Shown: piece after piece, positions 4,430 through 55,940 of the stretch
How positions within the stretch are numbered: the first letter of the stretch is position 1
Layout: each line of letters begins with the position of its first letter
Assembly (NCBI GenBank): GCA_002314795.1
Contig: DCHI01000007.1
Location: 5,827 to 69,826, forward strand
DNA: 64,000 bases
Source of the DNA: Bacteroidales bacterium UBA1756
GTDB taxonomy: Bacteria > Bacteroidota > Bacteroidia > Bacteroidales > WCHB1-69
Reading direction: 5' to 3'
Made by a program: the position numbers and the translations under genes
The notes under the pieces: generated by a model
Database searches by the model: none
The model's input: only the letters and a program-made list of their open reading frames with translations
Told to the model about the DNA's origin: nothing

Positions 4430-4441
4430 AGTGCTTTCATA

Positions 4442-5640: not shown

Positions 5641-5667
5641 TTTTTTATGATTTTAAAGTGATAAAAA

Positions 5668-22627: not shown

Positions 22628-22639
22628 AGTTGAACCTCC

Positions 22640-23425: not shown

Positions 23426-23465
23426 ATCTTTTTTTTAATTTTCAATTTTCAACTTTCAATTTGGA

Positions 23466-35856: not shown

Positions 35857-37554
35857 TTACTGCCGAAGCACCTTGATCGCCTCCGACCAACCATTTGTCC
35901 CTTTCACCGACAACAGATACAGTCCAGTTGCCCATTTTTCAGTATTGACGACCGCTTCTTGTGAAATGGTCTTATTATAAACCACTTTGCCAGACATATC
36001 GAAGACGACAATGTCTTTCGTATCGGTGGCGGCATTACGGATGCTGAACTGGTCGTGACAAGGATTCGGATAGACGGAAATGTCACCCAATAATTGGCTT
36101 CCCAAAATGCTGACGGTGGTGTCACGGTTTTCAAGATAGACACGGTAAAAATCGGGAATGCCATAGCCCATCACGGTGTCTGGAGCAGAGAATATGTGAC
36201 CGGCTTCCCGAATCATCTGCATAATTTCTAAAGAACTGTACTGGGGAAGTGCCTGCCATAAACACGCAGCCAAACCCGCTAAACACGGCGTGGCAGCCGA
36301 TGTCCCGTCAATGGGGTCAATATAAGTGAAAAGAAGGTCTCCTGACGGAAGGGGAAGTGTAAGTACATTGACCGCCTGACACTGACTTCCTACGGAAGCG
36401 ACATCCGGTTTGACGCGGCCATCAGAGCTCGGGCCGACACTTGAAAAGGTGGCGGGGATACTGTCAACGCCCACGGCGCCTACCGCCAAGATGTCTTCCG
36501 CATCAGCGGGACGGGAAATGCGGTGCCAGGCAGCATCTCCTTCATTGCCAGCCGCCACACAAACTACCATTCCCTTGTGCGCGGCCAACGTGGCGGCACG
36601 GGAAGCCAAACTCGTGTGTCCATCCAATGAACTGTATTCAATGGTCGTGTCGGAATTGTCAAATAACGTGTACCCTAAGGATGCCGTGAGCACATCCGTT
36701 CCCAAACTGTCAGCGAGCTCCGCTCCAGCTACCCAAAAATCCTCTTCCATAAGTTGCTCGTTTTCAGAAATTTCGGTACGAATAAATACGGCGTTTGCAT
36801 TGGGTGCCGTGCCTACAAAATTCAACGGCAGATTGTCCAACGCACTAATCATATTGATGTTGCTAAAAATAACGGAAGCGCAACTTGTTCCGTGCGAATT
36901 GCCGCTATAGATATCGCTTTGGCCGGGTACGAAATTGTAGGTTCCCAAAATCTGGTTGTTTTCGTAAAGGTTGGCAAAATATTCGCTGCGGTTGAAACTC
37001 AGCCACCCTGCGTCCAACATCGCAATCAACATTCCGTCGCCTTTATATCCTTCATTATGAAGAAGATGTCCATTGTGAATGGCGATTTGCGGAAACGCGA
37101 CCCCGTACTGCAATGAATCGGTAGTTGGTTCCAAAACGTCACCGGGGATGTCAATATCTATCGTATCCGACTGCTCACTGATATCTGCAAGATAGCCGAC
37201 GGGGACGAGGCTGTCCACGAAATCAAGTTGTCCGATGGCCGAAAGGGCTGTTGTTTCGGGGCATCGCACCACCACCGTATTGAACCAGCGGGAAGTCGCC
37301 ATCACAAGCACGCTGTCGCCGGTTTGGCGAATGGCTTGAACGTACGCCGGATTGACGGGCAAGTCCTCTTCCGTGATCCGGATGTCGAAACGGGCTCGCT
37401 TGGCGATGGCTCTATCGGACAAAAAGTCCTGTGGATTATTAATGGAATAGGGCGTATTCGCTTTATCGTGAAGGTAGATGCGGTAACAATTCACCTGTGC
37501 TTTTCCCAACAGCAAGCAAGTAGCAAAAAGCAAAAACAAGGAGAGTTTTTTCAT
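35857..37554 (-). CDS. S8 (subtilisin-family) serine peptidase with T9SS CTD
   Basis: Catalytic triad contexts AMLDAGW (Asp), NSHGTSCAS (His) and DGTSAATP (Ser). C-terminus is VYPNPCHDQFSI...GLYLLSVK. Confidence 0.88.
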   Translation of the reverse strand: MKKLSLFLLFATCLLLGKAQVNCYRIYLHDKANTPYSINNPQDFLSDRAIAKRARFDIRITEEDLPVNPAYVQAIRQTGDSVLVMATSRWFNTVVVRCPETTALSAIGQLDFVDSLVPVGYLADISEQSDTIDIDIPGDVLEPTTDSLQYGVAFPQIAIHNGHLLHNEGYKGDGMLIAMLDAGWLSFNRSEYFANLYENNQILGTYNFVPGQSDIYSGNSHGTSCASVIFSNINMISALDNLPLNFVGTAPNANAVFIRTEISENEQLMEEDFWVAGAELADSLGTDVLTASLGYTLFDNSDTTIEYSSLDGHTSLASRAATLAAHKGMVVCVAAGNEGDAAWHRISRPADAEDILAVGAVGVDSIPATFSSVGPSSDGRVKPDVASVGSQCQAVNVLTLPLPSGDLLFTYIDPIDGTSAATPCLAGLAACLWQALPQYSSLEIMQMIREAGHIFSAPDTVMGYGIPDFYRVYLENRDTTVSILGSQLLGDISVYPNPCHDQFSIRNAATDTKDIVVFDMSGKVVYNKTISQEAVVNTEKWATGLYLLSVKGTNGWSEAIKVLRQ

Positions 37555-37599: not shown

Positions 37600-38574
37600 T
37601 TATGAGACTTCGCTGATGCATTTATTTCTAATCAGAATCCTAAAATAGGGATAGTGACCATTGATTGACAAATCTTTTCCGTCATCTCCTTTTCGAAATC
37701 TTACAATTTCAAATTGATGAGGATTATATTTGTGGAGAAATGTGAGAGGAACTCCCATCATACCGTGATAATCTTTAGGAATATCTTGCGTTTTACTCAC
37801 GTTAATACCATCGCAATTATCATATTGCGGATAAAGTGCTTCGTTTCCTTTATAGTACTTGGTAAGTACAATAAAGTTATTCCGTTGTGATGTTTCTAAA
37901 TTAGTGAGCCAAAGACAATTATTGGTTGAAACGATATTATTCCCGTTCTCGTCTTTGTGAACTTCCGTTCCATATAAATCGTAATGCTCAGGGACGATAA
38001 AGCCAGAAATCCCTCTTCCCAAATTCACTCCTAACCAGGCTTTGTTCTGTTGAATCAAATCGAAAATTTCCTTGTAAGTAATCGAATTAATATTGCCAAT
38101 GATCAAGAATTGCTTATTGTATTTTACGAGCTGTGCAACAAATTCACGAAATAACGAAAAGGGGGGATTTGTAACAACAATATCAGCTTGTTTTAATAAT
38201 TCAACACTTTCAGAACTTCTAAAATCGCCATCTCCTTTAAAATAGGATATTTCCAAAGTTTTTTTATCATTTTCTCCTGAATACTCACAAAAGAAACCAT
38301 TTTCACGTTCCGAAGAGTTGAACAAATCAAATTCGGACTCTTTATAGCAAGCAGCAATCAATTTTTTCAATCCTAAAGAATGAAAATTATCTACAAAATA
38401 TTTAAAGAAATTGCTCACAAACGGGTCGTCACAGTTACAATACACAACTTTTCCTTTGAAATGGGAGGTATAGTGTTGTAATTCTCGTTCAATATCAGGA
38501 AGTAGCGTGTAGAATTCATCACTTTTAGATTTCCTTGCCTTTTGCAATAGTTGGTTTGTCGCTTTTCTTGCCAT
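37600..38574 (-). CDS. N6-adenine DNA methyltransferase, EcoRI-methylase family
   Basis: NPPF catalytic motif (VVTNPPFSLF). The N-terminus MARKATNQLLQKARKSKSDEFYT and the ~325-aa length resemble M.EcoRI as I recall it. Lies 8 bp downstream of the EcoRI-like endonuclease. Confidence 0.88.
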   Translation of the reverse strand: MARKATNQLLQKARKSKSDEFYTLLPDIERELQHYTSHFKGKVVYCNCDDPFVSNFFKYFVDNFHSLGLKKLIAACYKESEFDLFNSSERENGFFCEYSGENDKKTLEISYFKGDGDFRSSESVELLKQADIVVTNPPFSLFREFVAQLVKYNKQFLIIGNINSITYKEIFDLIQQNKAWLGVNLGRGISGFIVPEHYDLYGTEVHKDENGNNIVSTNNCLWLTNLETSQRNNFIVLTKYYKGNEALYPQYDNCDGINVSKTQDIPKDYHGMMGVPLTFLHKYNPHQFEIVRFRKGDDGKDLSINGHYPYFRILIRNKCISEVS

Positions 38575-38582
38575 AACAATTG

Positions 38583-39419
38583 CTATTTTGTGTGTGTTAG
38601 TTGTTTAAACAAATCGCTTCCTAATGTTTTGAGAGAGGTTTCTGATATTTCCATCATAATATCAAACATCATTTGGGGATTCCAATTATTCCCATTTCCA
38701 GGTGTAAATATGGAGGCCGCTTGCAGCATTATTGTTTTGTCTTTCGGTTTTACATACTTGTTTTCACAAAGGTTAGTATTTATTGGCATTCCATAATTTG
38801 CTGCTGTCAATCTGTCCAATCTGTTCAATAGTCCAGAATTATACTCAAGCGTTACCACTCTTCCATCAGGGCGGGCTACGGAAATCGTTTCTGTTAAAAA
38901 GTTCGTCCCCTCAAGAAATAATACGTATGGGAAATGTGATTCTGCCAACATATAATTGGCAATTTCTGAAATGTTTTTATGTGCTCTCTCAATGGCATTT
39001 CCTGCTGCCATTAAATCTTGATCCTTGTTTTTACCAACAAGTTCTCCTTTTTTTATGTTTTCAATATCCTTTCCTTGATGTTTCGCTTCAGAAACGAGAA
39101 CAACTCTCCAATTCCCATTATCGTCTTTTACCTCAATAATTCCTCCGTCAGGGATTATACTTGAGTGGGTGACATAGAGAGTTTGGCCTAAATAGGGATC
39201 GATACTATTTAAAACTTCGTTAATCTCTTTTTTATCAATGCTTTTTCTACAGCGGAATTCCAATTGCGGATATTTTTGCTGCAACGTATCTTTAACAATG
39301 ATTGAAATTTCACCTACAGTAATATCGTGCTTTTTAGCTTCTTCTCCAAAAATACCGACAACACCTTTACTTTCTTTATGTTGTTTTGTTAATCTTGCTG
39401 ATTGGTTTTTCTTAGTCAT
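38583..39419 (-). CDS. Type II restriction endonuclease, EcoRI family
   Basis: From ATG 39419 (278 aa; the track start 39479 overlaps the NRPS stop). Long blocks are identical to the R.EcoRI sequence as I recall it: PDGGI.EVKDD, EAKHQGKDI, DQDLMAAGNAIER.HKNISEIAN, HFPYVLFLEG.NFLTE, RPDGRVV.LEYNSG.LNRLDRLTAANYGMPIN.NLC. Confidence 0.9.
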   Translation of the reverse strand: MTKKNQSARLTKQHKESKGVVGIFGEEAKKHDITVGEISIIVKDTLQQKYPQLEFRCRKSIDKKEINEVLNSIDPYLGQTLYVTHSSIIPDGGIIEVKDDNGNWRVVLVSEAKHQGKDIENIKKGELVGKNKDQDLMAAGNAIERAHKNISEIANYMLAESHFPYVLFLEGTNFLTETISVARPDGRVVTLEYNSGLLNRLDRLTAANYGMPINTNLCENKYVKPKDKTIMLQAASIFTPGNGNNWNPQMMFDIMMEISETSLKTLGSDLFKQLTHTK

Positions 39420-39471
39420 AAAGCGATTGTTTATAATCAAAAGAGATACTCTCTTCCCGCATTTCCTTTCC

Positions 39472-42400
39472 TTACTCAAAAAATCTCAAACTATCAATCT
39501 GCTTGAGGAATTTGTCAATGTAGTCCCACGACGTTTGGCTCCATCTGAAACCGAGGCGCAGCAACATCTGCAAAGTGTAACGATTGTCCGCGCCAATCAT
39601 CTGCACGTAGTCGCTCTCCTTCTTGCCTTCGTACGCTAACATAGCCGATAGCTTTTCCTGCTTGCTTTCGTCGGCTTTCGCTTGGTTCAGAATATCCACA
39701 AAATCAGCATCTTCCACCAAATGAATGGTCTTGCCAATCGTTCCCATCTCGTGCAAAACATCACCCAACATTTGATGGTGACTGTTGTACGGATGGAAAA
39801 CGGTGCAGCACGCCGGCGTCTGCGCTAACAGACAGATGGCTTCGGACGTTTCGTCAATCGGCGAAAATTCAACCGGTGACTGATACGCGGAGTAGGGCAA
39901 CGCTCCCAACATCTGGTAGATACGCAACCGCCCCATAAAACTGTTCGTCTTGACATTAATCTGGAACTCACCGTCCTCCGAACGCGCCGAAAGGTTGCCA
40001 ACACGCATAATTTTTCCATCCAGTCCCCGATTGGCAACTGCATCCAACAAACAACGCTCGCCCATAATCTTGGAATGAATGTATTGATTGTGAATCCGTT
40101 GTCCGAGGAAAAGCATTTGTTCGGTGTAGGCAGATATGGCCGGTTCACCATTGACCGCCGCGCCCGCCACCGAATAGGTACTAATCTGGATAAGACGTGC
40201 TTTCTGACTGATACAGAAATCGATACAGTTTTTGACGCCGCCCACGTTCACATCCTCGATTTCGGTTCCTTGTGAAAAATGCTTCACAATAGCCGCACAG
40301 TTGATAACCGTATGGATGGGTGCCGTAATGTTGATGGGAGCAGTGACATCGCCTTCGATGACAAACACCCGCTTCCCAAATTCTTCAGCATAGTTCTTTT
40401 CAAAATAGTAGAAAACCATCTGACGCAGACGCTCCTCAGCCGAAATGCCTCGTTTCGAACGCAACAAACAGTAAATCTTGGAGTCAGGATATTTTTCCAT
40501 CAGACAACGGAAAACGTGAATGCCTAAAAAGCCCGTCGCACCCGTCAGTAACACATTTCCTAATGGCCGTTCTGCCAAGCGGTCGGCAACGGCTTGCGCC
40601 TGTTCCAATGTGTTTTCTTGCAACTGCTTGTTGATGGCCGTGTAGTCGAAATCGCGGATGTCCGCGTCCGGATCCGTCTGCGAATCGGTTCCCGTTCCTA
40701 CCAATTTGGCCAACTGCCGCGGTGTCGGATTCGCAAAAACGTCCGCGTAGGTGACGGAATAGCCCGCCTTTTGCGCCACAATTACCACGCGCATCACCAC
40801 CAACGAAGTTCCGCCCAACTCGAAGAAGGAGTCGGTGGCTCCCACTTTGTCAAGATTCAGAATTTCGGCAAAGGTGTTGGCAAAGAATTTTTCCGTCGGA
40901 TTGGCGGGCTCCACATAGTCGCCACCAGCTTGTGCCAACTTGGGGTCCGGAAGATGACGGAAATCGATTTTCCCGTTCGGCGTTATCGGAAACGCATCCA
41001 TTTGCAAATAAGCCGTCGGAACCATATAAGCGGTGAGTGTGTGACCGATGTTTTTTTTCATATCGTTGATATCAATCTCGTGCTCAGCAACATAGTATGC
41101 GCTGAGGTGGTCGCGTCCTTGCAAGTTGCAAATTTTCACCAACACATTTTTCACCCCTTCCACCTGCGAAATAGCACTTTCAACCTCCCCGAGTTCAATA
41201 CGAAGTCCACGCAGTTTCACCTGATTGTCGGTTCGGCCCAAGATTTCCACCTCTCCGTTCGGAAGCCAACGGGCGTAGTCACCCGTTTTAAAGGCACGCA
41301 TTCCGCGGTAGGTGATGAATTTTTCGGCTGTTTTTTCCGGCAGATTATTGTAACCTTGCGTTACGCCTTCGCCGCCCACACAAAGTTCGCCCGTCACACC
41401 GATAGGAAGTTCATTGTTGTCTTTGTCAATAATCCATTCCGTATAATTCGGAATCGGTTTTCCAACCGTCAACACTTTGGCATTCTGCAAATTAACGGAA
41501 TTACAACCGATGGAAATTTCGGTTGGTCCATAGCCGTTGAGAATCACACAATGGTTGTTGATCTTTCTTATTTTTTCTAAAAGAATTTCAGAAAATTTTT
41601 CACCACCTTGAAGAATGCATTTGAAATTCGGCATAATTGCCATAAATTCAGGAAGTTCCATATATTGCAACATTCTGGAACTGGTACAACCGAAATAATC
41701 GGCCTTCGTGCGCGTAAGCAAACTGGTCAGAAGGATGGGGTCTTTCGATTCCTCCTCATTTGAGAAAACAAACGTGCGCCCATTGAAAAGCGTCATTCCA
41801 TATTCAAAAATGGAGGCGTCAAAGGAGATGGTGGCGACGCAGCAGATACGCTCGCACTCTTCCATCATTATGCGCATCGGATGCTGCGGGCTGGAGGTCA
41901 CGAATGTGGTGATGTTGCGGTGAGCCACCCGTACGCCCTTCGGACGACCCGTACTTCCGGACGTATAAATATAGTACGCCAAGTCGTCCATCGTCACCTC
42001 GACGGCGGGCTGCTTTTCATCGGTTTCGGACAGCAAGTCAACGATGTCGATTCCCCGTTCTCCGTATTGCGCCACCAAATCATTGGTAGTCACCACGTAT
42101 GGCGCCGCCGAATCTTCGGCAATGAGTTGGATTCGTTCGGTCGGGTATTCCGGGTCGCACGGAATGAAGGCGCCACCCGCTTTCATAATACCGAAAATGC
42201 AAGCGATGGTCGTGCTTCTTCGTGGCAACAAAACAACGACGGCGTCTCCTTTTTTCAAACCCCGTTTCACCAACGCATTGCCAATACGATTTGCCAATTT
42301 ATCAAACTCACTATATGTCAATGTGTTATCTGTGGCAATAACGGCTAATTGGTCGGGAGTTGCTTTCGCCCATTTTTCCATTCCCCCGTGGAACAAACGA

Positions 42401-45400
42401 ATGGGAAGCGGTGCCGTACCGATGCAATTCATCGATTCCACCTCTGCTTTTTGTCTGTCAGAAAGAATGGAAATCGAAGATATTTTGGTCTCCGGATTAT
42501 TTATCATATTGATAATCACCTGATTCAAGGATTCCAACATCCGGTTCATCATTTCGGAAGAGTAGAGAGCGTCGTTGTACGAAGCTACTAATGAAATCTT
42601 TCCTTCTTTTTCTTCTACCAAAATCGTAACCTTGAACTTCGGTGCGGAAAGTTCCAACTCTTCCATCGTAATTTCTTGATTATCAACGATGAAATGATCA
42701 ATCACACCGACTTCGTAAACAAATACCAATTCTGGATTCAGGCTGAATTTGTTGGAAATTTTGGCAAACGGATAACTCTCGTTTTCAAGCGTTTTGTTGA
42801 AATTGGCCGCCACGTCGTGTATGTAGTCGGTAACACTTTTATCCGTTATGTGCGAAACCAAGGCCAACGTATTGACGAACATACCGACCGTATCCGCGAT
42901 TTTCACATTGCCGCGTCCGGAGGAAACGGTGCACAAGCAAACGTCTTTCGTATTTCCGTAACGAGCCGCAATATACTCAATAGCAGAAAGATAGACAGCC
43001 GCCGGTGTAACACCCAACTTCTTTGCAAAAGCTTCAACCGCAGGGTGATTGACGGGAAGAATGGCCTCCGCCGGTTTTCCTTCCTGCTCTTTTCCGTGCA
43101 AGTCCGCGGGGAAAGATGTCCCCTCATCAATAGAAGAAAGTTGCTCGTTGAAATAGGTCTCCGCCTCCGAATTGTCCGCCTTCTGTTCTTCTTTTGCATA
43201 CTCAAAGAACGTGCAACTTTCGGGGGTAATTTCTTTATTTTCAAGAATATCGCATACTTGATGCAAAAACAGACTCACCGAACTTCCGTCCATTGCCAAA
43301 TGATGACCGTCCATCAGCAGGGTGCTGCCACAAATCACGGCACGGGAAAGCGGGCCGTTCAGCAAATCAAAAGGTTGCACGAAGGTTGCTTTCACCTCTT
43401 CAATATTCTTGTCTGAAATGGTCACCGCGGCTTGCGTGTCAGGAGCGACCACTTGAACGGGCGGATCGACGGTGTTGTCGAAATGGGCCAACAGCAACGG
43501 ATGCATCATTATCACTTTTTCCACCGCGGTTTTCAGCTGTTCCGACGAAACCGAGTTCGGAAAGTTGACGAGGAAAGGAACGTTATACGCTGTTGATTCC
43601 ATATTCTTCATACATTCGTAGAAGACGCCCAATTGTGCATTTGACAAAGGTGCTGACAGCGTGGCATCGGTATTTTTCTGTTCTTCAACCGGTGATTCTT
43701 CAACCGTTTTTTTATCGGTTAAAAGATTTTCAAGTATCAGATTTTCAATAGATTGAAGAGTAGCCGACTTGGTTAGTTCCTTATTGGAAATAGAAATGCC
43801 GTAGCGTTTATAAAGTTCGGTCGCCAATTTGATGCTGCTGATGGAGGTCAGTCCGATGTAAGTCAACGGGGTGGTGATGGGGAAATGGCTGCAGTTCGTG
43901 AGCTTGCCAATCATCTCCATCAGTTCCTCTTCCAAACGATTGAGCGGTGCGGCGGGTGCGTCCGTCTCGTTCACTTCTTCCGTCTGAATTTCGGGTTTGG
44001 GCAACCGTTTTTTGTCAACCTTGCCGTTCACGTTCAACGGAATTTCATCAATCTGCATTGAGACGGCAGGAACCATATACGGCGGTTTCTGTTCTAAAAT
44101 AAAATTATTAAGTAACTTTATATCAATCTTTTTGGAAGAAACGAAATAGGCAGCGATGGCCTTTCCACCTGCTTCCAAGTCAAAGGCCTGCACCGTAACG
44201 TTTTCAATATCGGGGAAGTCGCGGATGACGGCTTCCACCTCTTTCAATTCGATACGGAACCCGCGGATTTTCACTTGTCCGTCTTTACGTCCGATGAACT
44301 CGATGGCTCCGTCTTCGCGATAGCGCACGATGTCGCCGCTGCGGTAAGCCCTTGCAAAATCGGGATTGCCGTCTGTGAACGGATTTTCAACAAAAGCGGC
44401 TGCCGTTTTTTCGGGAAGTTTCAGATATCCTTTCGCTTCTTGCGAGCTGGAAATCCACAATTCGCCTATCGCGCCCATCGGAACTCGTTGTAAATCTTTA
44501 TTAACCACATACAAACGAGAACTTTGTGAAGCAAATCCAATCGGAATGTTTTTCTCGTTCTTGCACACATCGTACGAAGCAACGTAAGCCAATGATTCCG
44601 TCGGGCCATAGCCGTTGATAAAACGGTAACGCGGCGGGTCCATACTCACCAACTTTTCACCCCCCACGAAAAGCACCTTCAATGAAGGGATGTCGGGAAA
44701 ATTGTTGGCCATTTGCGTTCCCACTTGGGTGGTCATAAAGGCGTGCGTAATTTGCTCATTGACAAAGTAATCGTGCAATGCCACCAAGTCGTAGCGAATC
44801 TCTTCACTGACAATGTGCAAAGAAGCGCCGGTCGTCATTGCGGCCCACAAATCCATCAAGTAGGCATCAAATCCGTATGAAGCGTAGGCTGCAATACGAC
44901 AATGAGCATCTATCTGTTGGTCAGCAGTATGTGCCAGCGACAGCGCCAAAATATTGCGATAGGTCAGCATAACGCCTTTCGGGGTTCCTGTCGTGCCGGA
45001 AGTGTAAAGCAGCGCAAAAACATCGTTCAGGTCAACGTTTACCTTTGAGGTTTTTTCGTTTCCTTGAATATCATTTATTGTATTGATAGTCAATGTTTCA
45101 CCAACGTACTCATCCACCATTCCACGAAAATCGTCGGGACAGATGAGGAGTTGCGCTTCTGCATCGGCAATCATAAAATTGAGACGTTCCTTCGGGTAAC
45201 TGGAGTCGAGCGGTTGGTAGGTACAGCCGGCTTTCACGATGGCAACGGGCACGACGAGCATCAGTTCGTTGCGGGGCACGATGAAACTCACCACGGGCAA
45301 TGTTCCGTTCGTACGGGAAACTTTCTGCTGGATGGATGCCGCCAAACGGTCCGTAAATTCGCCTATCTGCTTGTATGTAAATCTTTTATTTTCAAAAACG

Positions 45401-46785
45401 CAGCACTCGTTATTCGGATACTTTTCAACATTTGCATTAAAAAAGTCGATAACGGTTTTGTCAAGCGGGTAGGGCATTGGTTTTTCCGGGTTGCGTTCAT
45501 CTAACCACTGGAGTTGTTTTTCAGAAGAAGCTGCCAATTGGCCAATGGTTTCGGCAGTCGCCATCGAATTGAGAATGGCGGCGTAGGCATCGGCCATTTC
45601 TGCCACCATTTCCGTTGAGTAGAGGGCGCTTTGATAACTTATTCTCAAATTATAATCACTGGATTCCGTGGCATCGGGGGTAACCAAAAGTTGGCCGTCG
45701 AGTGTAATGCCGGGCCGCGCGATACGCAAATCCTGCCCCTTGATTTGGAGGCCGCCGGCGGTGAAATCAAAAACGGTGGTAGGCACGATGCGTCCGTGGT
45801 AGGCAAAAATGATGTCGCTACGCAGGTTCAGGTCTTGGTGAATATCGGAAAACGAGTAAACGCTTTTTTCGCGGGTAGCTTTCTGCTGTTCGACGATGGA
45901 AAGCAGCCAGTCGCTCACCTTTCTGGACGAAGGCATTTCCATAAAAACGGGCATCGTATGCACCATCATCGTCATAGCTTGGCGGGTACGTTTGTCGGTA
46001 CGGCCGGTGTAAATATTTGCAAAAAACGCTTTGTCTTCGGCGGTGAAATTGGCTAAAAGCTTTCCCCAAGCCGCTTGAAAAACGGCACCTTCTTTCACAT
46101 TGAATTTTGAACTAATGGTTTCCAGTGTGGCCAATTTAACGGGAATTTGAAAATTCGTTTCCACCAAACCGCGGTTATTGTCGGCTCTATCGATGTTGGA
46201 AGGGATGGGCATCGAGTCGGTTTCTTCTGCGTTGGCAAATTCCTTAAGATACCATTCTCGTTGGCTTTTCCACTCGTCGCTTTGTCGGAGTTCCCATTCT
46301 TCGTTGGCGATTTCGGCGCCATCGATAATTTCGCCCAAGGCCGTGCCTTCGTCGTAGGCGCGACCCATTTCCGACATCAGTACAGACCAACAGCTGCCAT
46401 CCACGATGATGTGGTGAAAATCGAGGTAGAGATAATTGACGGAGGGGGTTTTATAAATTTCCATACGGAAAAGACGATCGTGCATCAAATCCATCGTACG
46501 GCAGAAGGTGGGACGCGCCTCGTCAATACTTTTAACTTCTTGAATTTCAACAATATCGTCTGAAAACGTGCCGGGGTCCATCAGCAGAACATCGTCTTGC
46601 AAAACGATTTTAGACAAGATGTACGGATGAGCTTTGATGAACAATTCCAGGGCGTTTTTTATTCTATTAACATCAATAGAATCAGGTAATTCGTATAAAA
46701 CCGGGACTTGATAGTTGCCGTCGTTTTCTTCCAAATTCTGGCAGGCATAAAAGATGCCGAGTTGTGATTGTGAGAGTGGTGACAT
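39472..46785 (-). CDS. Non-ribosomal peptide synthetase, two modules with terminal reductase (C-A-T-C-A-T-R)
   Basis: C1 HHIIVDG (aa 124-130). A1 LYTSGTTGTPKG / NGYGPTE / GRKDGQVKIRGFRIEL / NGKVDKKRL. T1 IGLTSIS (~aa 981). C2 HHLAMDG (aa 1161-1167). A2 YTSGSTGRPKG / NGYGPTE / GRTDNQVKLRGLRIELGEVE / NGKIDFRHL. T2 LGGTSL (~aa 1994). R domain LLTGATGFLG ... YIHSK (aa ~2075-2437; nt ~39475..40563). Confidence 0.95.
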   Translation of the reverse strand: MSPLSQSQLGIFYACQNLEENDGNYQVPVLYELPDSIDVNRIKNALELFIKAHPYILSKIVLQDDVLLMDPGTFSDDIVEIQEVKSIDEARPTFCRTMDLMHDRLFRMEIYKTPSVNYLYLDFHHIIVDGSCWSVLMSEMGRAYDEGTALGEIIDGAEIANEEWELRQSDEWKSQREWYLKEFANAEETDSMPIPSNIDRADNNRGLVETNFQIPVKLATLETISSKFNVKEGAVFQAAWGKLLANFTAEDKAFFANIYTGRTDKRTRQAMTMMVHTMPVFMEMPSSRKVSDWLLSIVEQQKATREKSVYSFSDIHQDLNLRSDIIFAYHGRIVPTTVFDFTAGGLQIKGQDLRIARPGITLDGQLLVTPDATESSDYNLRISYQSALYSTEMVAEMADAYAAILNSMATAETIGQLAASSEKQLQWLDERNPEKPMPYPLDKTVIDFFNANVEKYPNNECCVFENKRFTYKQIGEFTDRLAASIQQKVSRTNGTLPVVSFIVPRNELMLVVPVAIVKAGCTYQPLDSSYPKERLNFMIADAEAQLLICPDDFRGMVDEYVGETLTINTINDIQGNEKTSKVNVDLNDVFALLYTSGTTGTPKGVMLTYRNILALSLAHTADQQIDAHCRIAAYASYGFDAYLMDLWAAMTTGASLHIVSEEIRYDLVALHDYFVNEQITHAFMTTQVGTQMANNFPDIPSLKVLFVGGEKLVSMDPPRYRFINGYGPTESLAYVASYDVCKNEKNIPIGFASQSSRLYVVNKDLQRVPMGAIGELWISSSQEAKGYLKLPEKTAAAFVENPFTDGNPDFARAYRSGDIVRYREDGAIEFIGRKDGQVKIRGFRIELKEVEAVIRDFPDIENVTVQAFDLEAGGKAIAAYFVSSKKIDIKLLNNFILEQKPPYMVPAVSMQIDEIPLNVNGKVDKKRLPKPEIQTEEVNETDAPAAPLNRLEEELMEMIGKLTNCSHFPITTPLTYIGLTSISSIKLATELYKRYGISISNKELTKSATLQSIENLILENLLTDKKTVEESPVEEQKNTDATLSAPLSNAQLGVFYECMKNMESTAYNVPFLVNFPNSVSSEQLKTAVEKVIMMHPLLLAHFDNTVDPPVQVVAPDTQAAVTISDKNIEEVKATFVQPFDLLNGPLSRAVICGSTLLMDGHHLAMDGSSVSLFLHQVCDILENKEITPESCTFFEYAKEEQKADNSEAETYFNEQLSSIDEGTSFPADLHGKEQEGKPAEAILPVNHPAVEAFAKKLGVTPAAVYLSAIEYIAARYGNTKDVCLCTVSSGRGNVKIADTVGMFVNTLALVSHITDKSVTDYIHDVAANFNKTLENESYPFAKISNKFSLNPELVFVYEVGVIDHFIVDNQEITMEELELSAPKFKVTILVEEKEGKISLVASYNDALYSSEMMNRMLESLNQVIINMINNPETKISSISILSDRQKAEVESMNCIGTAPLPIRLFHGGMEKWAKATPDQLAVIATDNTLTYSEFDKLANRIGNALVKRGLKKGDAVVVLLPRRSTTIACIFGIMKAGGAFIPCDPEYPTERIQLIAEDSAAPYVVTTNDLVAQYGERGIDIVDLLSETDEKQPAVEVTMDDLAYYIYTSGSTGRPKGVRVAHRNITTFVTSSPQHPMRIMMEECERICCVATISFDASIFEYGMTLFNGRTFVFSNEEESKDPILLTSLLTRTKADYFGCTSSRMLQYMELPEFMAIMPNFKCILQGGEKFSEILLEKIRKINNHCVILNGYGPTEISIGCNSVNLQNAKVLTVGKPIPNYTEWIIDKDNNELPIGVTGELCVGGEGVTQGYNNLPEKTAEKFITYRGMRAFKTGDYARWLPNGEVEILGRTDNQVKLRGLRIELGEVESAISQVEGVKNVLVKICNLQGRDHLSAYYVAEHEIDINDMKKNIGHTLTAYMVPTAYLQMDAFPITPNGKIDFRHLPDPKLAQAGGDYVEPANPTEKFFANTFAEILNLDKVGATDSFFELGGTSLVVMRVVIVAQKAGYSVTYADVFANPTPRQLAKLVGTGTDSQTDPDADIRDFDYTAINKQLQENTLEQAQAVADRLAERPLGNVLLTGATGFLGIHVFRCLMEKYPDSKIYCLLRSKRGISAEERLRQMVFYYFEKNYAEEFGKRVFVIEGDVTAPINITAPIHTVINCAAIVKHFSQGTEIEDVNVGGVKNCIDFCISQKARLIQISTYSVAGAAVNGEPAISAYTEQMLFLGQRIHNQYIHSKIMGERCLLDAVANRGLDGKIMRVGNLSARSEDGEFQINVKTNSFMGRLRIYQMLGALPYSAYQSPVEFSPIDETSEAICLLAQTPACCTVFHPYNSHHQMLGDVLHEMGTIGKTIHLVEDADFVDILNQAKADESKQEKLSAMLAYEGKKESDYVQMIGADNRYTLQMLLRLGFRWSQTSWDYIDKFLKQIDSLRFFE

Positions 46786-46791
46786 TATATT

Positions 46792-47811
46792 TTACTTGTT
46801 TTTGTTTATTTTATTGAGGTCCGTATCTAATTGCTTAATGCTTTCAAAATGTTCAATTTCCCGTTCTGCGGTTTTGTATTTATTATACTCAATCATTGCC
46901 TTTTCCATTGCCATTTGATGTGATATTTTTCCGGCATCTTCCAAAATCGATTTTTTGTTCATAGATAGAACCATTTTCAATCGTTCAATCCAATCATTCA
47001 TATACATTGGAGTATGTGATAAAGCTTGTGCTTCAGCAAATGCAAGAAATTGTTCAACAATAAGTTTTAAGGCACCTATTTCTTCTTCATTAAGATAGTT
47101 CTTGCCCACGGCAATATCTGATTTAGCGACCTTTCCGATATTTTCAGTTGAAGTCAAGCCCATCATTGGCAATGAAGCATTTGCTCTATAATAGACCAAT
47201 TCTGCGGCTGTTTTGCCACTCACTGCCCATAGCAGTTTGTTTTGAATCTCCTTAAAAAACTGTAATGTGATTTCATCTGACGGATTATAGTCAATGCTCG
47301 TGGCGTAAATATCCTTTATTTGTTGATAGAAAACTTTTTCCGACAATCTTATATCTCGAATACGTTCAAGTAACTCCTTGAAATAATTCATTGAGTTGCC
47401 CTTTTTGAAACGTTCATCATTCAATGCCACACCTTTGATGATATATTCTCGTAGCCGTTGTGTCGCCCAAATTCTGAATTGCGTTCCCTGATGAGATTTA
47501 ACTCGGTAACCAACTGATATGATGACATCCAGGTTGTAATAATTAGTTGGTTTTGTAGAAAAATCGGGAATTCCGATTTTTCTCATTGTCATCGATTCCA
47601 CAAGCTCTTTTTCTTGGTAAATATGTAGTATATGCTCATTGATTGTTGACCGAGATTTCCCAAACAACAAACACATTTGGTCAATACTCAGCCATACAGT
47701 TTCATTTTCAAAAAGCACATCAACTTTGATTGTACCATCCTGAGATTGGTATAATAAAAACTCATCGTTGGAAGTAAGCCCAAAAGTTGTTGTATTTTTT
47801 TCGTTATCCAT
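46792..47811 (-). CDS. RhuM family protein (virulence/defence-island associated, function unknown)
   Basis: 339 aa. The pattern VWLSIDQMCLLFGKSRSTINEHI ... YYNLDVIISVGYRVKSHQGTQFRIWATQRLREYIIKG is typical of RhuM-family proteins. The stop lies 6 bp before the NRPS ATG. Confidence 0.8.
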   Translation of the reverse strand: MDNEKNTTTFGLTSNDEFLLYQSQDGTIKVDVLFENETVWLSIDQMCLLFGKSRSTINEHILHIYQEKELVESMTMRKIGIPDFSTKPTNYYNLDVIISVGYRVKSHQGTQFRIWATQRLREYIIKGVALNDERFKKGNSMNYFKELLERIRDIRLSEKVFYQQIKDIYATSIDYNPSDEITLQFFKEIQNKLLWAVSGKTAAELVYYRANASLPMMGLTSTENIGKVAKSDIAVGKNYLNEEEIGALKLIVEQFLAFAEAQALSHTPMYMNDWIERLKMVLSMNKKSILEDAGKISHQMAMEKAMIEYNKYKTAEREIEHFESIKQLDTDLNKINKNK

Positions 47812-47959
47812 TCGTCAATAGCTTAAATTTATAGCACTTCTCTGAATTGTTTATGTTTTTTTTTCATTAGATAGATAATTACAAAATTCTCATCAAATCT
47901 TCAAATAAAAAATACAAAGTTGGAATTCAAAGTTAAAAAGACATCATTTTTAAAAGGCG

Positions 47960-47967
47960 CAAAAGTA
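47960..47967 (-). promoter_or_regulatory. -7 promoter box (TACTTTTG on minus strand), candidate promoter of the RhuM-NRPS-RM block
   Basis: CAAAAGTA on the plus strand, ~150 nt upstream of the RhuM ATG. It is the only TAnnTTTG match between gdhA and RhuM on this strand. Confidence 0.35.
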
Positions 47968-48058
47968 CGCAAATTTCGCCATAAAATTTGTTAAAAAAGA
48001 GGGTGATTTTTCTTTTAAAATAATAATGAAAACGGGTACGCAATTCAAAAAATAATCA

Positions 48059-48066
48059 TACTTTTG
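48059..48066 (+). promoter_or_regulatory. -7 promoter box TACTTTTG
   Basis: 48 nt upstream of the gdhA ATG. Confidence 0.5.
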
Positions 48067-48113
48067 CCGCCCGTTAATGAACACTAATTCTAACAACTTA
48101 AAAAAGTTATATT

Positions 48114-49457
48114 ATGGAAGTTAAAAAAATCATGGCTAACCTGGAAGCCAAACATCCTGGTGAAAAAGAGTATTTGCAGGCAGTAGAAGAAGTCCTCGTA
48201 ACCATCGAAGACATTTACAACCAGCATCCTGAATTCGAAAAGGCAAAAATCATCGAAAGATTGGTTGAACCCGATCGTATTTTCACCTTCCGCGTTACTT
48301 GGGTAGATGACAATGGCGAAGTTCAAAACAACATCGGTTACCGTGTACAATACAATGCTGCTCTCGGCGCATACAAAGGCGGTCTCCGTTTCCACCCCGC
48401 AGTTAACGTTTCAATGTTGAAATTCTTAGGTTTCGAACAGATTTTCAAAAACAGCTTGACCAACCTTCCTCTCGGTGGTGGTAAAGGTGGTGCTGATTTC
48501 GATCCTACTGGAAAGAGCGATGCTGAAATTATGCGTTTCTGCCAAGCTTTTATGTATGAATTGTGGCGCAACATCGGTGCTGACCAAGACAGCCCCGCTG
48601 GTGACGTAGGTGTTGGCGGTCGTGAAATCGGCTACCTCTATGGCGCTTACAAGAAACTCGCTCGCGAACACAGCACCGGCGCTCTCACTGGTAAGAGCTA
48701 CGGTTGGGGTGGTTCTTTGATCCGTCCTGAAGCTACCGGTTTCGGTGCTATCTACTATGTAGAAAGAATGGTTAAACAAAACGGTGACAAGATGGAAGGC
48801 AAGAGAATCGCTCTCTCTGGCTTCGGTAATGTTGCTTGGGGTGCTGCTACCAAAGCTACCGAACTCGGTGCTAAGGTTGTCGCTCTCTCTGGTCCCGACG
48901 GCGTTTGCGAACTTCCCGAAGGCGTAAACAAAGAAATGATTGACTATATGCTCGTTATGCGTGACTCACGTCGTAACAAAGTTCAGGATATGGCTGACAA
49001 ATTCCCAGGAAAAGCTATCTTCACTCCTGGCAAGAAAGCTTGGAGCGTAAAATGTGACATCGCTTGTCCTTGCGCATTCCAAAACGAAATGAGCGAAGAA
49101 GACGCTAAAGAACTTCTCGCTAACGGCGTTAAATACGTTGCTGAAGTTTCCAATATGGGTTGCCAACCTGGCGCTATCGCAGCTATCCAAGGTGCTGGTA
49201 TTCCTTTCGCTCCTGGTAAAGCAGTTAACGCTGGTGGCGTTGCTACTTCCGGTCTCGAAATCTGCCAAAACGCAGGTCACATCAACTGGACTGCTCCTGA
49301 AGTAGATGCTAAATTGCACAAAATTATGAACGACATCTATGATATGTGCGTAGAATACGGTAAAGATGCTAAAGGTAACATTAACTACGTTAAGGGTGCC
49401 AACATCGCTGGTTTTATGCGCGTTGCTAAAGCTATGCTCGCTCAAGGTATCATCTAA
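48114..49457 (+). CDS. gdhA: NADP-specific glutamate dehydrogenase
   Basis: 447 aa. LPLGGGKGGADFDP catalytic Lys motif and GFGNVAWG dinucleotide fold. Confidence 0.93.
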   Translation: MEVKKIMANLEAKHPGEKEYLQAVEEVLVTIEDIYNQHPEFEKAKIIERLVEPDRIFTFRVTWVDDNGEVQNNIGYRVQYNAALGAYKGGLRFHPAVNVSMLKFLGFEQIFKNSLTNLPLGGGKGGADFDPTGKSDAEIMRFCQAFMYELWRNIGADQDSPAGDVGVGGREIGYLYGAYKKLAREHSTGALTGKSYGWGGSLIRPEATGFGAIYYVERMVKQNGDKMEGKRIALSGFGNVAWGAATKATELGAKVVALSGPDGVCELPEGVNKEMIDYMLVMRDSRRNKVQDMADKFPGKAIFTPGKKAWSVKCDIACPCAFQNEMSEEDAKELLANGVKYVAEVSNMGCQPGAIAAIQGAGIPFAPGKAVNAGGVATSGLEICQNAGHINWTAPEVDAKLHKIMNDIYDMCVEYGKDAKGNINYVKGANIAGFMRVAKAMLAQGII

Positions 49458-49482
49458 TCGATTGATTCCTTTTTATACAGAA

Positions 49483-49515
49483 AACGCCTTCCGAATTCGG
49501 AGGGCGTTTTTTTTG
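49483..49515 (+). terminator. Rho-independent terminator
   Basis: Stem CGCCTTCCG / CGGAGGGCG around loop AATT, followed by T9. Confidence 0.85.
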
Positions 49516-49686
49516 TGAGGGGAGGATAGTCTAAGGTCTGTCGATTTTGCGTGTTTCGAAACCAAATTTCTTCCAAAAGTTCTACCGACAATAGAATGCT
49601 TATAATAATAATTTACAACTTATTATATGTAATTTATTGATAAACAAGCTTGTGAATATACCTATAGATAGATGAAAATATTATCA

Positions 49687-49694
49687 TAAATTTG
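49687..49694 (+). promoter_or_regulatory. -7 promoter box TAAATTTG
   Basis: 36 nt upstream of ATG 49730. Confidence 0.45.
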
Positions 49695-49729
49695 CGATGC
49701 TTTTTTTTCAATAAAAACCCTTAATCTTT

Positions 49730-51184
49730 ATGCTTTTTAATTCCTTTGCCTTTGCCATATTTTTACCGCTTGTATTCATTTTATATTGGGCAGTTTTCAA
49801 TAGAAAGAATGTAAAATTAAGGAACGCATTTATATTAGTCGTTAGCTATATTTTTTATGGTTGGTGGGATTGGCGTTTTTTAATATTGATTGCCATAACT
49901 AGTTTCTGTTCGTGGGGAAGCGGGTGGCTTATTCAAAAGTCCTCGTATACCTCCGAAGAGAAGAAATTGGGTCCTAAATTTTGGCTGATTTCCAATTTGA
50001 TTTTGAATTTAGGTATTTTGGCCGTATTCAAATATTTCAATTTTTTTGTTGATTCATTTGTAACTGTTTTGACTTCAGTTGGTGTTCCCATCCATTCAAC
50101 AAGTACACTCAACATAATTCTTCCCGTCGGTATCTCTTTTTATACATTTCAGGCATTGAGTTATGGAATTGATGTTTATCGGAAGGATGTGGAACCGACA
50201 CGTGATTGGCTGCAATTTTTCGCATTTGTAAGTTTTTTCCCACAACTCGTTGCTGGGCCTATTGAGCGAGCCAAAAATTTGTTGCCGCAATTTGAGACAA
50301 TCAAAAAACCTGATTATGATATTTTCCGTTCTGCAATGTTGCTGATTGCGTGGGGATATTTCAAAAAGTTAATGATAGCCGACCGACTTGCTGTTTTTGT
50401 TGAAGCTACTTTTGACCACGGTGCTACATCATTTCCAATGTTACTAGGTGCAATTTTCTTTGCGTTTCAACTTTACCTGGATTTTTCAGCATATTCTGAT
50501 ATAGCTATCGGATGTGGGAAGTTGTTTGGTTTTAATTTGATGACAAATTTCCGTCGTCCCTATTTCAGCACATCGTTCAGTAATTTTTGGAAACGTTGGC
50601 ATATTTCTTTGTCATCTTGGTTTATGGACTATCTGTACATTCCTCTTGGTGGAAATCGGAAGGGAAAGACGCGGAAAATGTTGAACTTAATCATTGTTTT
50701 TGCCGTTAGTGGTCTATGGCATGGCGCAAGTTGGAATTTTGTAATTTGGGGTGTCGCTAATGCTTTGTTTATGATTATACTGGATCCATTTTTGAAGAGG
50801 TTACAGTCAGAAAACTTTTTTGCTCGTTTCTTCAAGGCAACTATTATTTTCACGGGTTGGATGCTGTCTCTGGTTTTCTTCCGCGCGAAGGGCTTTGATG
50901 TTGCTACCGATTGTTTCTCCAATCTTGGATTCAGTAATATAGGAGAAATTACAAATTACGGATTGAATTCACGTGAACTATGGCTTATTGCCATAACAAT
51001 CGGCATATTGTTCATAAAGGAATTGATATGTGAACGGAATGAACAAACTCTTCGGAACTTATTTTTCAACAAGATTCCACTGATTTTCCGATGGTGCTTC
51101 TATGTTGCATTCATTCTATCAATAGTCTATTTTGGCCAGTACGGTGGCGGCAATGAACATTCATTTATTTATTTTCAGTTCTAA
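49730..51184 (+). CDS. MBOAT family O-acyltransferase (AlgI/DltB/PatA-like)
   Basis: 484-aa polytopic protein with FWKRWHISLSSWFMDYLYIPLGGNR (conserved His region) and SGLWHGASWNF. Confidence 0.88.
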   Translation: MLFNSFAFAIFLPLVFILYWAVFNRKNVKLRNAFILVVSYIFYGWWDWRFLILIAITSFCSWGSGWLIQKSSYTSEEKKLGPKFWLISNLILNLGILAVFKYFNFFVDSFVTVLTSVGVPIHSTSTLNIILPVGISFYTFQALSYGIDVYRKDVEPTRDWLQFFAFVSFFPQLVAGPIERAKNLLPQFETIKKPDYDIFRSAMLLIAWGYFKKLMIADRLAVFVEATFDHGATSFPMLLGAIFFAFQLYLDFSAYSDIAIGCGKLFGFNLMTNFRRPYFSTSFSNFWKRWHISLSSWFMDYLYIPLGGNRKGKTRKMLNLIIVFAVSGLWHGASWNFVIWGVANALFMIILDPFLKRLQSENFFARFFKATIIFTGWMLSLVFFRAKGFDVATDCFSNLGFSNIGEITNYGLNSRELWLIAITIGILFIKELICERNEQTLRNLFFNKIPLIFRWCFYVAFILSIVYFGQYGGGNEHSFIYFQF

Positions 51185-51188
51185 AACT

Positions 51189-52655
51189 ATGTCTAAAAGC
51201 AATTATAAATCACCGGTTCAAAAAAAATGCGGGCAACCTGTGTCAAAATCTGTTGAGAACAAAAAGTTCCCTTGGGTGAAATTTTTTCTTAAACTTTTCT
51301 TCCTTTTTCTAATAATATTTACAGTAGTATTTATTACTGATAAAAAAGAGTATTTCGTTGGTGATCAGTCGAATAATCATAGTGGTCGAAAATGGCAAGC
51401 CTTTTATAAATTTGCAGAGAAAAAATCTAAAAATGTAGATATTTTAGTTCTCGGAAATTCTCACGCTTCTGCAGGAATTGAACCATATATTCTTTCTGAA
51501 AATACAAATTCTTACTGCTTTATCTTGAATACACCTGGTGCAGGTTCTGTTGATTTGTATTATAACTTGGTGGAAGTCCTTAAATATTGTAAACCCAAGC
51601 TGGTCATTGTCGAGACAAGTTGTCTCATTGGAGACGGAATTGGAAAAGAGTGGGCTTGCATACAAAGTATTGAATCAAAAAAAGGTCTTTTGAATAAGTT
51701 TAGTTTAATTCCACATTATTTGTCATCAGATGATTGGATTAAGGCTGTGTCTCCAACAATTCGAAACCACTCATTCTTACTGACTGACACAGCACGTATT
51801 GCATTCAATGTCAAGAATGTAGGAAAGGATAAAAATCCGCCAAGAAATGATTTTGAATTAGGACGATTCAGTCACGGAAATGACGGTATGTCAGACTCTA
51901 TCTATAGTTTGTATAAGAAAAATCCTGGACCGCTCAAATGCAGCCATTGCTATATTGTGGACAAAACACGAAAATATGTTCATAAGTTATATGACTTGTG
52001 CCAAGAAAATGGTATTGAACTGATGTTCATTACGGTTCCAATGCATCCATTAGCTTATGAGGATTACAATTACTTGAAAAAAGTCAATCAAGAATTTATC
52101 AATGAATTTCCAAAGGCAAAATGGTTGGATCTGCAACAAAATTGTGACACTACGATTTATACCCGTGCTGCATTTAATAACGAGTATGGCGGTTGGCAGC
52201 ATAACACATATTTAGGTATGACCTTAAATACGTATCAATTATGCGATTTCATCTATAAAAACTATACAAGCAAATTGCCAAATCGTGCATCTGATAAAAG
52301 ATGGATAGATGATTTTAGCAAAGACGATAATTTCATTTATAACCAACCTGTACCTGATAATTTGAAAGATTACTTAATCATTGCTAAAAATGTGGATGTA
52401 AATGGCTTACACGTTAGAGAGTGCTTTGTTAAACAAGAAAAGGATAGAAACACTTTGGTGCTTAAAGTTGACAAAACCGAAAAGTTGCCGAATACATTAA
52501 GGTGTGTGATTGGATTGGAGGAAAATAATCAGTTGGCCATAGTGGATTTGTCCACAAGTCCGACTATTAATCCACCGCAATACAAAGTGTATATGATTGG
52601 ATTGATAAAAGAAGCGCACGTCAGAGAATTGGTAAGTCTCAATGTAAGGCAATAG
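51189..52655 (+). CDS. Membrane-anchored hypothetical protein, possible SGNH-like partner of the MBOAT
   Basis: ATG 51189 lies 5 bp after the MBOAT stop (the track start 51132 overlaps the MBOAT gene). N-terminal TM anchor. DILVLGNSHASAGIEP resembles SGNH block I with Asn replacing Asp. No other motif recognised. Confidence 0.5.
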   Translation: MSKSNYKSPVQKKCGQPVSKSVENKKFPWVKFFLKLFFLFLIIFTVVFITDKKEYFVGDQSNNHSGRKWQAFYKFAEKKSKNVDILVLGNSHASAGIEPYILSENTNSYCFILNTPGAGSVDLYYNLVEVLKYCKPKLVIVETSCLIGDGIGKEWACIQSIESKKGLLNKFSLIPHYLSSDDWIKAVSPTIRNHSFLLTDTARIAFNVKNVGKDKNPPRNDFELGRFSHGNDGMSDSIYSLYKKNPGPLKCSHCYIVDKTRKYVHKLYDLCQENGIELMFITVPMHPLAYEDYNYLKKVNQEFINEFPKAKWLDLQQNCDTTIYTRAAFNNEYGGWQHNTYLGMTLNTYQLCDFIYKNYTSKLPNRASDKRWIDDFSKDDNFIYNQPVPDNLKDYLIIAKNVDVNGLHVRECFVKQEKDRNTLVLKVDKTEKLPNTLRCVIGLEENNQLAIVDLSTSPTINPPQYKVYMIGLIKEAHVRELVSLNVRQ

Positions 52656-52681
52656 TTTCGTATAGTCATTAAAAATATACG

Positions 52682-55861: not shown

Positions 55862-55940
55862 CCCCTGTTTTTTATCCCTTCTAACGCACACAATGACAAT
55901 AGAATACATAAATATTAAACCACTTTTAAAAACAATCCTT

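Follow-up and report, generated by a model that had tools for sequence, protein, structure and literature searches.

A dimodular, reductase-terminated peptide synthetase of a Bacteroidales bacterium and the sensor/STAS gene pair associated with it

The 64,000-nucleotide stretch of Bacteroidales bacterium UBA1756 analysed here (the window) carries a gene for a non-ribosomal peptide synthetase (NRPS) at 39472..46785 on the minus strand, and further along it a membrane sensor and a STAS protein whose counterparts adjoin the same synthetase in its relatives. The NRPS gene is a single intact reading frame of 2437 amino acids (aa) with an ATG start. Pfam finds two Condensation, two AMP-binding (with AMP-binding_C) and two PP-binding domains followed by a C-terminal NAD_binding_4/Epimerase region (NAD_binding_4 at aa 2080-2317), and together with the motifs and the family alignment this gives the order condensation (C), adenylation (A), carrier (T), C, A, T and reductase (R), or C-A-T-C-A-T-R. 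The first module consists of C1, a putative N-acylating condensation domain (45481..46785, aa 1-435, HHIIVDG at aa 124), A1 (43981..45453, aa ~445-935, specificity code DAMFFGGAYK) and T1 (43726..43938, aa ~950-1020, phosphopantetheinyl Ser981 in GLTSI). The second contains C2 (42442..43653, aa 1045-1448, HHLAMDG at aa 1161), A2 (40936..42378, aa ~1470-1950, code DAFGLGGIGK) and T2 (40690..40890, aa ~1966-2032, Ser1994 in GGTSL), and it ends in a thioester reductase of the short-chain dehydrogenase/reductase type (39472..40560, aa ~2076-2437, with TGATGFLG, T2203, Y2235 and K2239). All of these lie on the minus strand.

Both adenylation domains contain the A3, A5, A7, A8 and A10 motifs, A5 reading NGYGPTE at aa 724 and at aa 1750, and the reductase motifs TGATGFLG and YIHSK are found at aa 2081 and aa 2235. 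Across 49 aligned full-length homologues, invariant columns hold the condensation residues H125, D129, H1161, H1162 and D1166, the carrier serines S981 and S1994, and G2082, G2085, G2088, T2203, Y2235 and K2239 of the R domain. Since its catalytic residues are invariant across these homologues, the protein looks like an intact, functional dimodular enzyme. An earlier account made from the letters and translations of the window (the sequence-only reading) had described one 2437-aa C-A-T-C-A-T-R frame with all core motifs and without a thioesterase or epimerisation domain. Pfam and the motif check bear this out, Pfam revealing no thioesterase and no third condensation/epimerisation-type domain in the protein.

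The sensor gene (52977..55229, minus strand) encodes 750 aa, with a first transmembrane helix (~aa 17-40), a dCache_1 domain, a second transmembrane helix (~aa 332-358), a PP2C/SpoIIE phosphatase domain (aa 421-610) and a HATPase_c_2 domain (aa 631-743). The phosphatase domain matches PF07228 at 3e-50 and has intact GDVSGKG, TDG and DDIT motifs. The kinase domain matches PF13581 at 1.5e-16 and RsbW weakly, with its GGLG G2 box and E..N N-box intact. It is accompanied by a single-domain STAS protein of the anti-sigma-factor antagonist type (52682..52987, minus strand, 101 aa), which scores 76 bits against the TIGR00377 cut-off of 53. Its serine aligned to Ser58 of SpoIIAA is invariant in seven STAS proteins. 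The best homologues of the window sensor among 5.8 billion proteins are 46-35% identical, below which the scores fall to generic sensors, and their contigs are equal in size to those bearing the NRPS homologues P0004, P0009, P0020, P0006, P0008, P0012, P0011, P0013, P0015 and P0016. The window sensor is an orthologue of the genes that adjoin the NRPS in relatives.

The relatives whose loci were compared span 34-84% NRPS identity. A dCache-PP2C (SpoIIE) phosphatase gene adjoins the NRPS in all 12 independent family loci, a STAS gene of ~100 aa is present in 11 of them, and most have an RsbW-like HATPase_c_2 domain, which in the majority of loci is fused to the phosphatase. The layout varies. 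At L003 (P0004) and L007 (P0021) the NRPS is listed with a PP2C-HATPase protein and STAS, at L095 (P0002) the order is PP2C-HATPase, STAS, NRPS, and L004 (P0011) has NRPS, PP2C and STAS. L005/6 (P0016) has a separate HATPase_c_2 gene, which overlaps the NRPS start in L005, together with NRPS, PP2C and STAS, and at L008 (P0034) PP2C and STAS are divergent from the NRPS. Both L012 (P0025) and L013 run PP2C-HATPase, STAS, AlgE-like porin, NRPS and MatE, with a phosphopantetheinyl transferase (PPTase) following in L012. L009/10 (P0061, a Muribaculaceae metagenome-assembled genome, or MAG) reads STAS, PP2C-HATPase, a MatE-HATPase fusion, NRPS and PPTase. The fusion protein there (L009 7364-9088, the same gene in L010) is a MATE efflux protein with a C-terminal RsbW-like HATPase_c_2 domain, lying between the sensor phosphatase and the NRPS. 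In P0013, P0015, P0017 and P0018 the HATPase_c_2 domain is instead fused to the N-terminus of the NRPS itself (residues 32-131 in P0013); L094 (P0013) thus has this fused NRPS, PP2C and STAS. The phosphatase is visible at the P0013 and P0015 loci, where the PP2C proteins (P0180 and P0182) are without HATPase_c_2.

Hidden Markov models built from the STAS, PP2C and HATPase sequences of the family loci match every family locus, including L012 and L013, which were not in the building set, and none of 81 control NRPS loci (L002, L011, L014-L092). The controls came from a metagenome-contig scan with the family alignment. That scan responded to the generic A3 motif, and most of the NRPSs it retrieved were unrelated ones from soil and marine samples, with L013 as the only family member. 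The conserved neighbourhood and the gene fusions argue for a functional link between sensor/STAS and NRPS, and as comparative evidence this is strong. The sequence-only reading had called the NRPS an orphan; judged by the loci of its relatives, the pair at 52682..55229 belongs with it. Leahy et al. (2010, PMC2812497) noted MatE, an anti-sigma-factor antagonist and a pair of serine phosphatases on the flanks of the NRPS mru0068 of Methanobrevibacter ruminantium. With the same kind of neighbourhood at an archaeal locus, the association is old and family-wide. In the literature on partner switching and NRPSs, this 2010 genome note was the only item found and no functional study was encountered. 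As a separate observation, the gene between STAS and NRPS in L012 (6631-7977) and L013 (8557-9942) encodes an AlgE-like (Alginate_exp) outer-membrane beta-barrel. With the downstream MatE of both loci, it suggests that these lineages may have all that is needed for export through both membranes.

In the window, the pair and the NRPS are no longer adjacent. The closest relative, L095, has sensor, STAS, 57 nt and NRPS in succession, its proteins being 61%, 84% and 84% identical to those of the window, and its DNA is co-linear with the window over L095 1046-2619 (window 54256-52683) and L095 2678-10002 (window 46785-39473). Between these lie ~5.9 kb (46786..52681) that L095 lacks. As the two genomes are co-linear on both sides of the gap, comparison indicates that a 5.9-kb insertion has come between STAS and NRPS in the window genome and split the unit. 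The segment holds rhuM (46792..47811, minus strand), an NADP-dependent glutamate dehydrogenase (NADP-GDH) gene, gdh (48114..49457, plus strand), an MBOAT acyltransferase gene (49730..51184, plus strand) and, overlapping the last, a frame of 507 aa (488 aa in the JGI call; 51132..52655, plus strand) that has no Pfam or NCBIfam match. Target-site duplications and terminal inverted repeats were sought at the borders of the segment, where just short, chance-level repeats occur. The gdh, MBOAT and 507-aa genes form a plus-strand block within the sensor-STAS-NRPS unit. Only 6 nt separate the end of the RhuM-family gene from the start codon of the NRPS, and a Bacteroidetes-type -7-like motif, TAACTTTG, lies upstream of rhuM at 47935-47928, so the NRPS may be co-transcribed with rhuM from the rhuM promoter.

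The interruption also raises the question of whether the gene is a stranded and effectively silent remnant, cut from its sensor/STAS operon and flanked by mobile defence genes. The low GC content of rhuM and of the EcoRI restriction-modification genes on the other side (0.38 in these flanks, compared with ~0.48 for the NRPS) would fit such a history, as would the lack of a PPTase or MatE in the 64 kb. A check of the window's frames of at least 150 aa, and of the small frames tested, revealed no PPTase, MbtH, MATE, outer-membrane or other exporter, which agrees with the earlier statement that PPTase, MbtH, transporter and tailoring genes are missing; the immediate neighbours are not tailoring genes. 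However, neutral decay would hardly have left a 7.3-kb frame undisrupted and every invariant family residue in place. In the closest clade (L003, L004, L005 and L007), too, no PPTase or MatE adjoins the NRPS, and the placing of rhuM and the -7-like motif makes transcription plausible. A silent remnant is considered highly improbable, and the gene is taken below as a functional-looking member of its family.

The R domain bears most directly on the product. The carrier-reductase (PCP-R) structure of Mru_0351 (6VTJ, E=3.7e-63) matches it from end to end, C-terminal subdomain included, and the domain also matches the R domain of AusA (4F6C) at E=2e-38, with TGxxGxxG and the Thr/Tyr/Lys triad in register in both alignments. 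The best NCBIfam model for the whole NRPS is the AusA equivalog NF047350, aligned to aa 718-2430 with 1274.5 bits against a cut-off of 2500. The likeness to AusA that had been proposed is upheld by these two matches. The Tyr/Lys pair, on which the sequence-only reading had made its aldehyde prediction depend, is in place as Y2235 and K2239, aligned to 6VTJ and AusA-R and invariant in the family. N-acyl dipeptide aldehydes are known products of the C-A-T-C-A-T-R architecture (PMC8518294, PMC12327764). The Clostridium cluster BGC0001686 yields N-octanoyl-Met-Phe-H, and ruminopeptin is an N-acyl Leu-Glu aldehyde (both PMC8518294). The architecture has been linked with protease inhibitors of the pyrazinone and dipeptide-aldehyde classes (PMC10979478), pyrazinones arising when free dipeptide aldehydes cyclise (PMC10979478, PMC8210680).

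A four-electron reduction would instead give an (N-acyl) dipeptidyl alcohol with no protease-reactive warhead. NRPS R domains of the same fold, those of MxaA and Mtb-R, do release alcohols, and sequence offers no rule for telling one outcome from the other (PMC8024701); MxaA-R is itself matched by the window domain, at 2e-11. This is much weaker than the match to AusA-R, which releases an aldehyde and is the closest R domain of known product, and the characterised C-A-T-C-A-T-R products found in the literature are aldehydes (PMC8518294). Hence, release of an alcohol appears quite unlikely, and reduction to the aldehyde is preferred.

Whether the aldehyde would carry an acyl group depends on C1, which is N-terminal, has an intact HHIIVDG motif and is preceded by no carrier domain in cis. 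Its profile matches are led by Bacitracin synthase 3 (1e-44) and TycC6 (1e-40), with the first C domain of PvdL, which is placed after an acyl ligase and carrier (AL-T), among its top solved matches (1e-34). The canonical starter C domains of SrfAA (1e-18), CDA-C1 (3e-14) and RzmA (8e-13) follow far below. By these scores C1 is nearer to elongation-type domains, such as those of Bacitracin synthase 3 and TycC6, and its placement among the canonical starters is doubtful. One relative, P0045, has the order FAAL-ACP-C-A-T-C-A-T-R, with a fatty acyl-AMP ligase (FAAL) and acyl carrier protein (ACP) fused ahead of C1, and the window C1 is closer to the C1 position than to C2 of the FAAL-ACP-fused proteins. 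Because the His and Asp of C1 are invariant and some relatives are fused to FAAL-ACP, a role of C1 as an acylating (starter) domain is plausible. Of the earlier claim that the leading C domain implies N-acylation, the conserved catalytic residues and the FAAL-ACP relatives speak in favour; a grouping with canonical starter domains did not emerge.

Should C1 not acylate naturally, the free dipeptide aldehyde would form a dihydropyrazinone or pyrazinone by spontaneous cyclisation, as happens with AusA. The apparent position of C1 outside the canonical starter type would agree with this, the surroundings of the NRPS in the window include neither an acyl-activating gene nor an ACP, and C-A-T-C-A-T-R has been described, with reference to Guo et al., as the canonical architecture for pyrazinones (PMC10979478). 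Yet the HHxxxDG His and Asp of C1 are invariant in the 49 homologues, which suggests selection as a catalyst, relatives with a fused FAAL-ACP exist, and N-acyl products are documented for the architecture (PMC8518294). A free aldehyde is accordingly thought unlikely, though less so than an alcohol, and the N-acyl dipeptide aldehyde is the product carried forward.

The specificity codes were read by aligning the A domains of the family to residues 234-335 of GrsA, the fragment being checked against 1AMU, and this yields DAMFFGGAYK for A1 and DAFGLGGIGK for A2. The codes given in the sequence-only reading agree at nine of ten positions in each domain; at position 278 the alignment has F (A1) and G (A2) in place of its Q and S. 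The two pockets are hydrophobic and contain many glycines, above all that of A2, which argues for large non-polar side chains as the preferred substrates. As the best reading, the product would be an N-acyl dipeptide aldehyde made from two large hydrophobic residues.

The gut-microbiome family of dipeptide-aldehyde and pyrazinone NRPSs was reportedly described by Donia in 2014 and by Guo et al. in Cell in 2017. The window enzyme shares with that family the two-module C-A-T-C-A-T-R order, the N-terminal C domain, the terminal reductase and an anaerobic, host-associated lineage, and in some relatives (L009, L012 and L013) a MATE exporter and a PPTase adjoin the NRPS as well. The previously noted agreement in domain order holds, and kinship with the family is supported indirectly, through Methanobrevibacter, Muribaculaceae and other homologues. 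In contrast, the characterised members in the literature consulted are from Firmicutes whereas the window NRPS comes from an uncultured Bacteroidales bacterium, and its named homologues (Muribaculaceae and Methanobrevibacter) are just 32-34% identical. Like the aureusimine synthetase AusA/PznA of Staphylococcus aureus, it has a homologous R domain with the same triad and would release a dipeptide reductively, and AusA supplies its best NCBIfam model. Unlike AusA (A-T-C-A-T-R), it has an extra N-terminal C domain, falls short of the equivalog cut-off of 2500 and is not adjoined by an ausB-like PPTase. Mru_0351 of M. ruminantium provides the nearest solved structure, but is an enzyme of four modules from an archaeal host; Mru_0068, from the same archaeal host, shares the kind of neighbourhood with serine phosphatases, an anti-sigma-factor antagonist and MatE (PMC2812497).

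In all, some 70 C-A-T-C-A-T-R homologues exist, including the Muribaculaceae and Methanobrevibacter proteins. The Bacteroidales branch comprises ~18 proteins at 58-84% identity to the window NRPS and dozens more at 30-50%. The identical NRPS recurs on contigs from NCBI, from Logan and from a JGI metagenome, and a genome-contig search with the NRPS protein alone matched only a 26% identical Nostoc NRPS. The enzyme is an uncharacterised, new Bacteroidales member of a known NRPS family, and on homology the best-supported reading makes it a producer of an N-acyl dipeptide aldehyde or pyrazinone. Gut anaerobes make peptide aldehydes that potently inhibit proteases of both hosts and microbes; the characterised producers named in the literature consulted are Firmicutes, and the locus documents a sizeable uncharacterised Bacteroidales branch with new substrate codes. 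As an observation on this branch, P0021 (L007) is 66-88% identical to the window NRPS over residues 1 to ~900 (C1-A1) and 18-46% over T1-C2-A2-T2-R. The break falls at the A1/T1 junction, the A2 code changes from DACGLGGIGK to DMSMIGGQAK, and the flanks of L007 and L003 (P0004) are syntenic. It looks like a natural module swap.

Taken together, comparison of the loci indicates that the NRPS is the output member of a conserved three-part unit formed with the dCache-PP2C-RsbW-like sensor and the STAS phosphoprotein. In the favoured account, a PPTase encoded elsewhere would prime Ser981 and Ser1994, and A1 and A2 would each load an L-amino acid whose side chain is large and non-polar. C1 would place an acyl group on the first of these, the donor probably being an acyl-ACP or acyl-CoA from primary metabolism rather than a product of the locus, and C2 would then form the dipeptide. 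The R domain, using NAD(P)H, would release an N-acyl dipeptide aldehyde, which would act on Cys/Ser proteases as a reversible covalent warhead; if the dipeptide were not acylated, it would cyclise to a dihydropyrazinone or pyrazinone. The partner-switching pair is envisaged to gate peptide production on an extracytoplasmic signal, perhaps by acting on the synthetase or the exporter itself. This account of a dimodular, aldehyde-releasing NRPS within a sensor/STAS unit is regarded as probable. The sensor/STAS unit offers a concrete handle on when these cryptic clusters become active, a matter that commonly stands in the way of identifying what they make.

Several observations weigh against this account. 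On the product side, the product class is a prediction from homology; both A-domain codes are without an assigned substrate; C1 has the elongation-type affinity described above; and two-electron and four-electron reduction are not separable by sequence (PMC8024701). There is also no PPTase within the 64 kb. On the regulatory side, the NRPS and sensor/STAS are now in separate operons in the window genome, so the coupling may be weakened, and L093 (P0003), with an NRPS 80% identical, keeps just a PP2C paralogue and no STAS. Moreover, the models applied to the control loci were clade-derived and could miss very distant STAS or PP2C genes.

How the pair might act on the NRPS is a further matter. 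Sigma-factor Pfam families were found neither among the annotated genes of the window nor among the called genes of the 12 related loci, though a sigma factor may be encoded elsewhere. Partner switches with outputs other than sigma factors include SiaABCD of Pseudomonas and SypE/SypA of Vibrio. Such modules have been reviewed (PMC8256260), and an Anabaena example is HenR/STAS (PMC13555669). The unit described here has in common with them a PP2C phosphatase, an RsbW-type kinase, a STAS phosphoprotein, no adjoining sigma gene and, plausibly, an output at the level of an enzyme or exporter rather than transcription. It differs in that its output would be an NRPS or a MATE exporter, of which no earlier description was found, and in that the kinase domain is variously fused to the sensor, the NRPS or the exporter. 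The fusions of RsbW-like domains to NRPS and MatE make direct protein-level control a reasonable hypothesis, and suggest a form of control that is unusual for an NRPS. In its most specific form, the dCache-PP2C/RsbW-like/STAS module would be a post-translational switch that acts on the assembly line and exporter instead of on a sigma factor. The docking partner of unphosphorylated STAS would be the RsbW-like domain, carried by the sensor, the NRPS N-terminus or the MATE protein according to lineage, and their contact would switch the synthesis or export of the dipeptide aldehyde on or off in response to an extracellular ligand. Such a switch is advanced tentatively and is somewhat doubtful. 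To our knowledge, no NRPS has so far been shown to be gated by partner switching, and this would, if true, be the first.

The remainder of the window is ordinary Bacteroidales chromosome, with EF-G, PBP2/RodA, a polyprenyl synthase, TonB paralogues, a Bcd/Etf set and NADP-GDH. Clustering at 90% or more places the GDH together with proteins called 'Bacteroidales bacterium' MAG by NCBI, and this clustering and the cargo genes of the type IX secretion system (T9SS) support the Bacteroidales context recognised at the outset. Five proteins of the window have a T9SS C-terminal sorting domain. Three are peptidases, namely a gingipain-like C25 peptidase of 1240 aa with a propeptide (24993..28715, minus strand) and two S8 peptidases, or subtilases (35857..37554 and 60639..63806, both minus strand); the other two, a protein of 320 aa and an ASH-domain protein, are encoded on the plus strand (18325..19287 and 55893..57716). 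The sequence-only reading had correctly listed one C25 and two S8 peptidases and had thought a self- or host-protease target conceivable from their presence. As a conserved association this link was rejected, for neither family adjoins the NRPS in any relative's locus, and other peptidase families occur only sporadically near the NRPS of relatives, in L007 and L008. The proximity seems to reflect local chromosome content. Protease inhibition is a general expectation for peptide aldehydes, no particular target being indicated by the locus.

Directly downstream of the NRPS lie an EcoRI-type endonuclease gene (38583..39479 with a TTG start, or 38583..39419 in the JGI call) and an EcoRI-type methylase gene (37600..38574), both on the minus strand. 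Their low GC suggests that the pair is probably a mobile insertion outside the pathway. GAATTC is under-represented in the window, where 21 sites compare with an expectation of 33.3 +/- 5.4, and the 7.3-kb NRPS gene contains no such site. An acyl-CoA dehydrogenase and the alpha and beta subunits of electron-transfer flavoprotein are encoded at 21620-24605 (minus strand). This set of the butyryl-CoA dehydrogenase/Etf type is a possible source of short acyl-CoA, with nothing that ties it to the NRPS. A second restriction-modification pair, an Eco47II-type endonuclease and a C-5 cytosine methylase, occupies 3125-5179 (minus strand), the stretch of lowest GC in the window (0.35), and is adjoined by genes for two tandem PepSY_like small proteins of 138 and 141 aa (5224-6093, minus strand).

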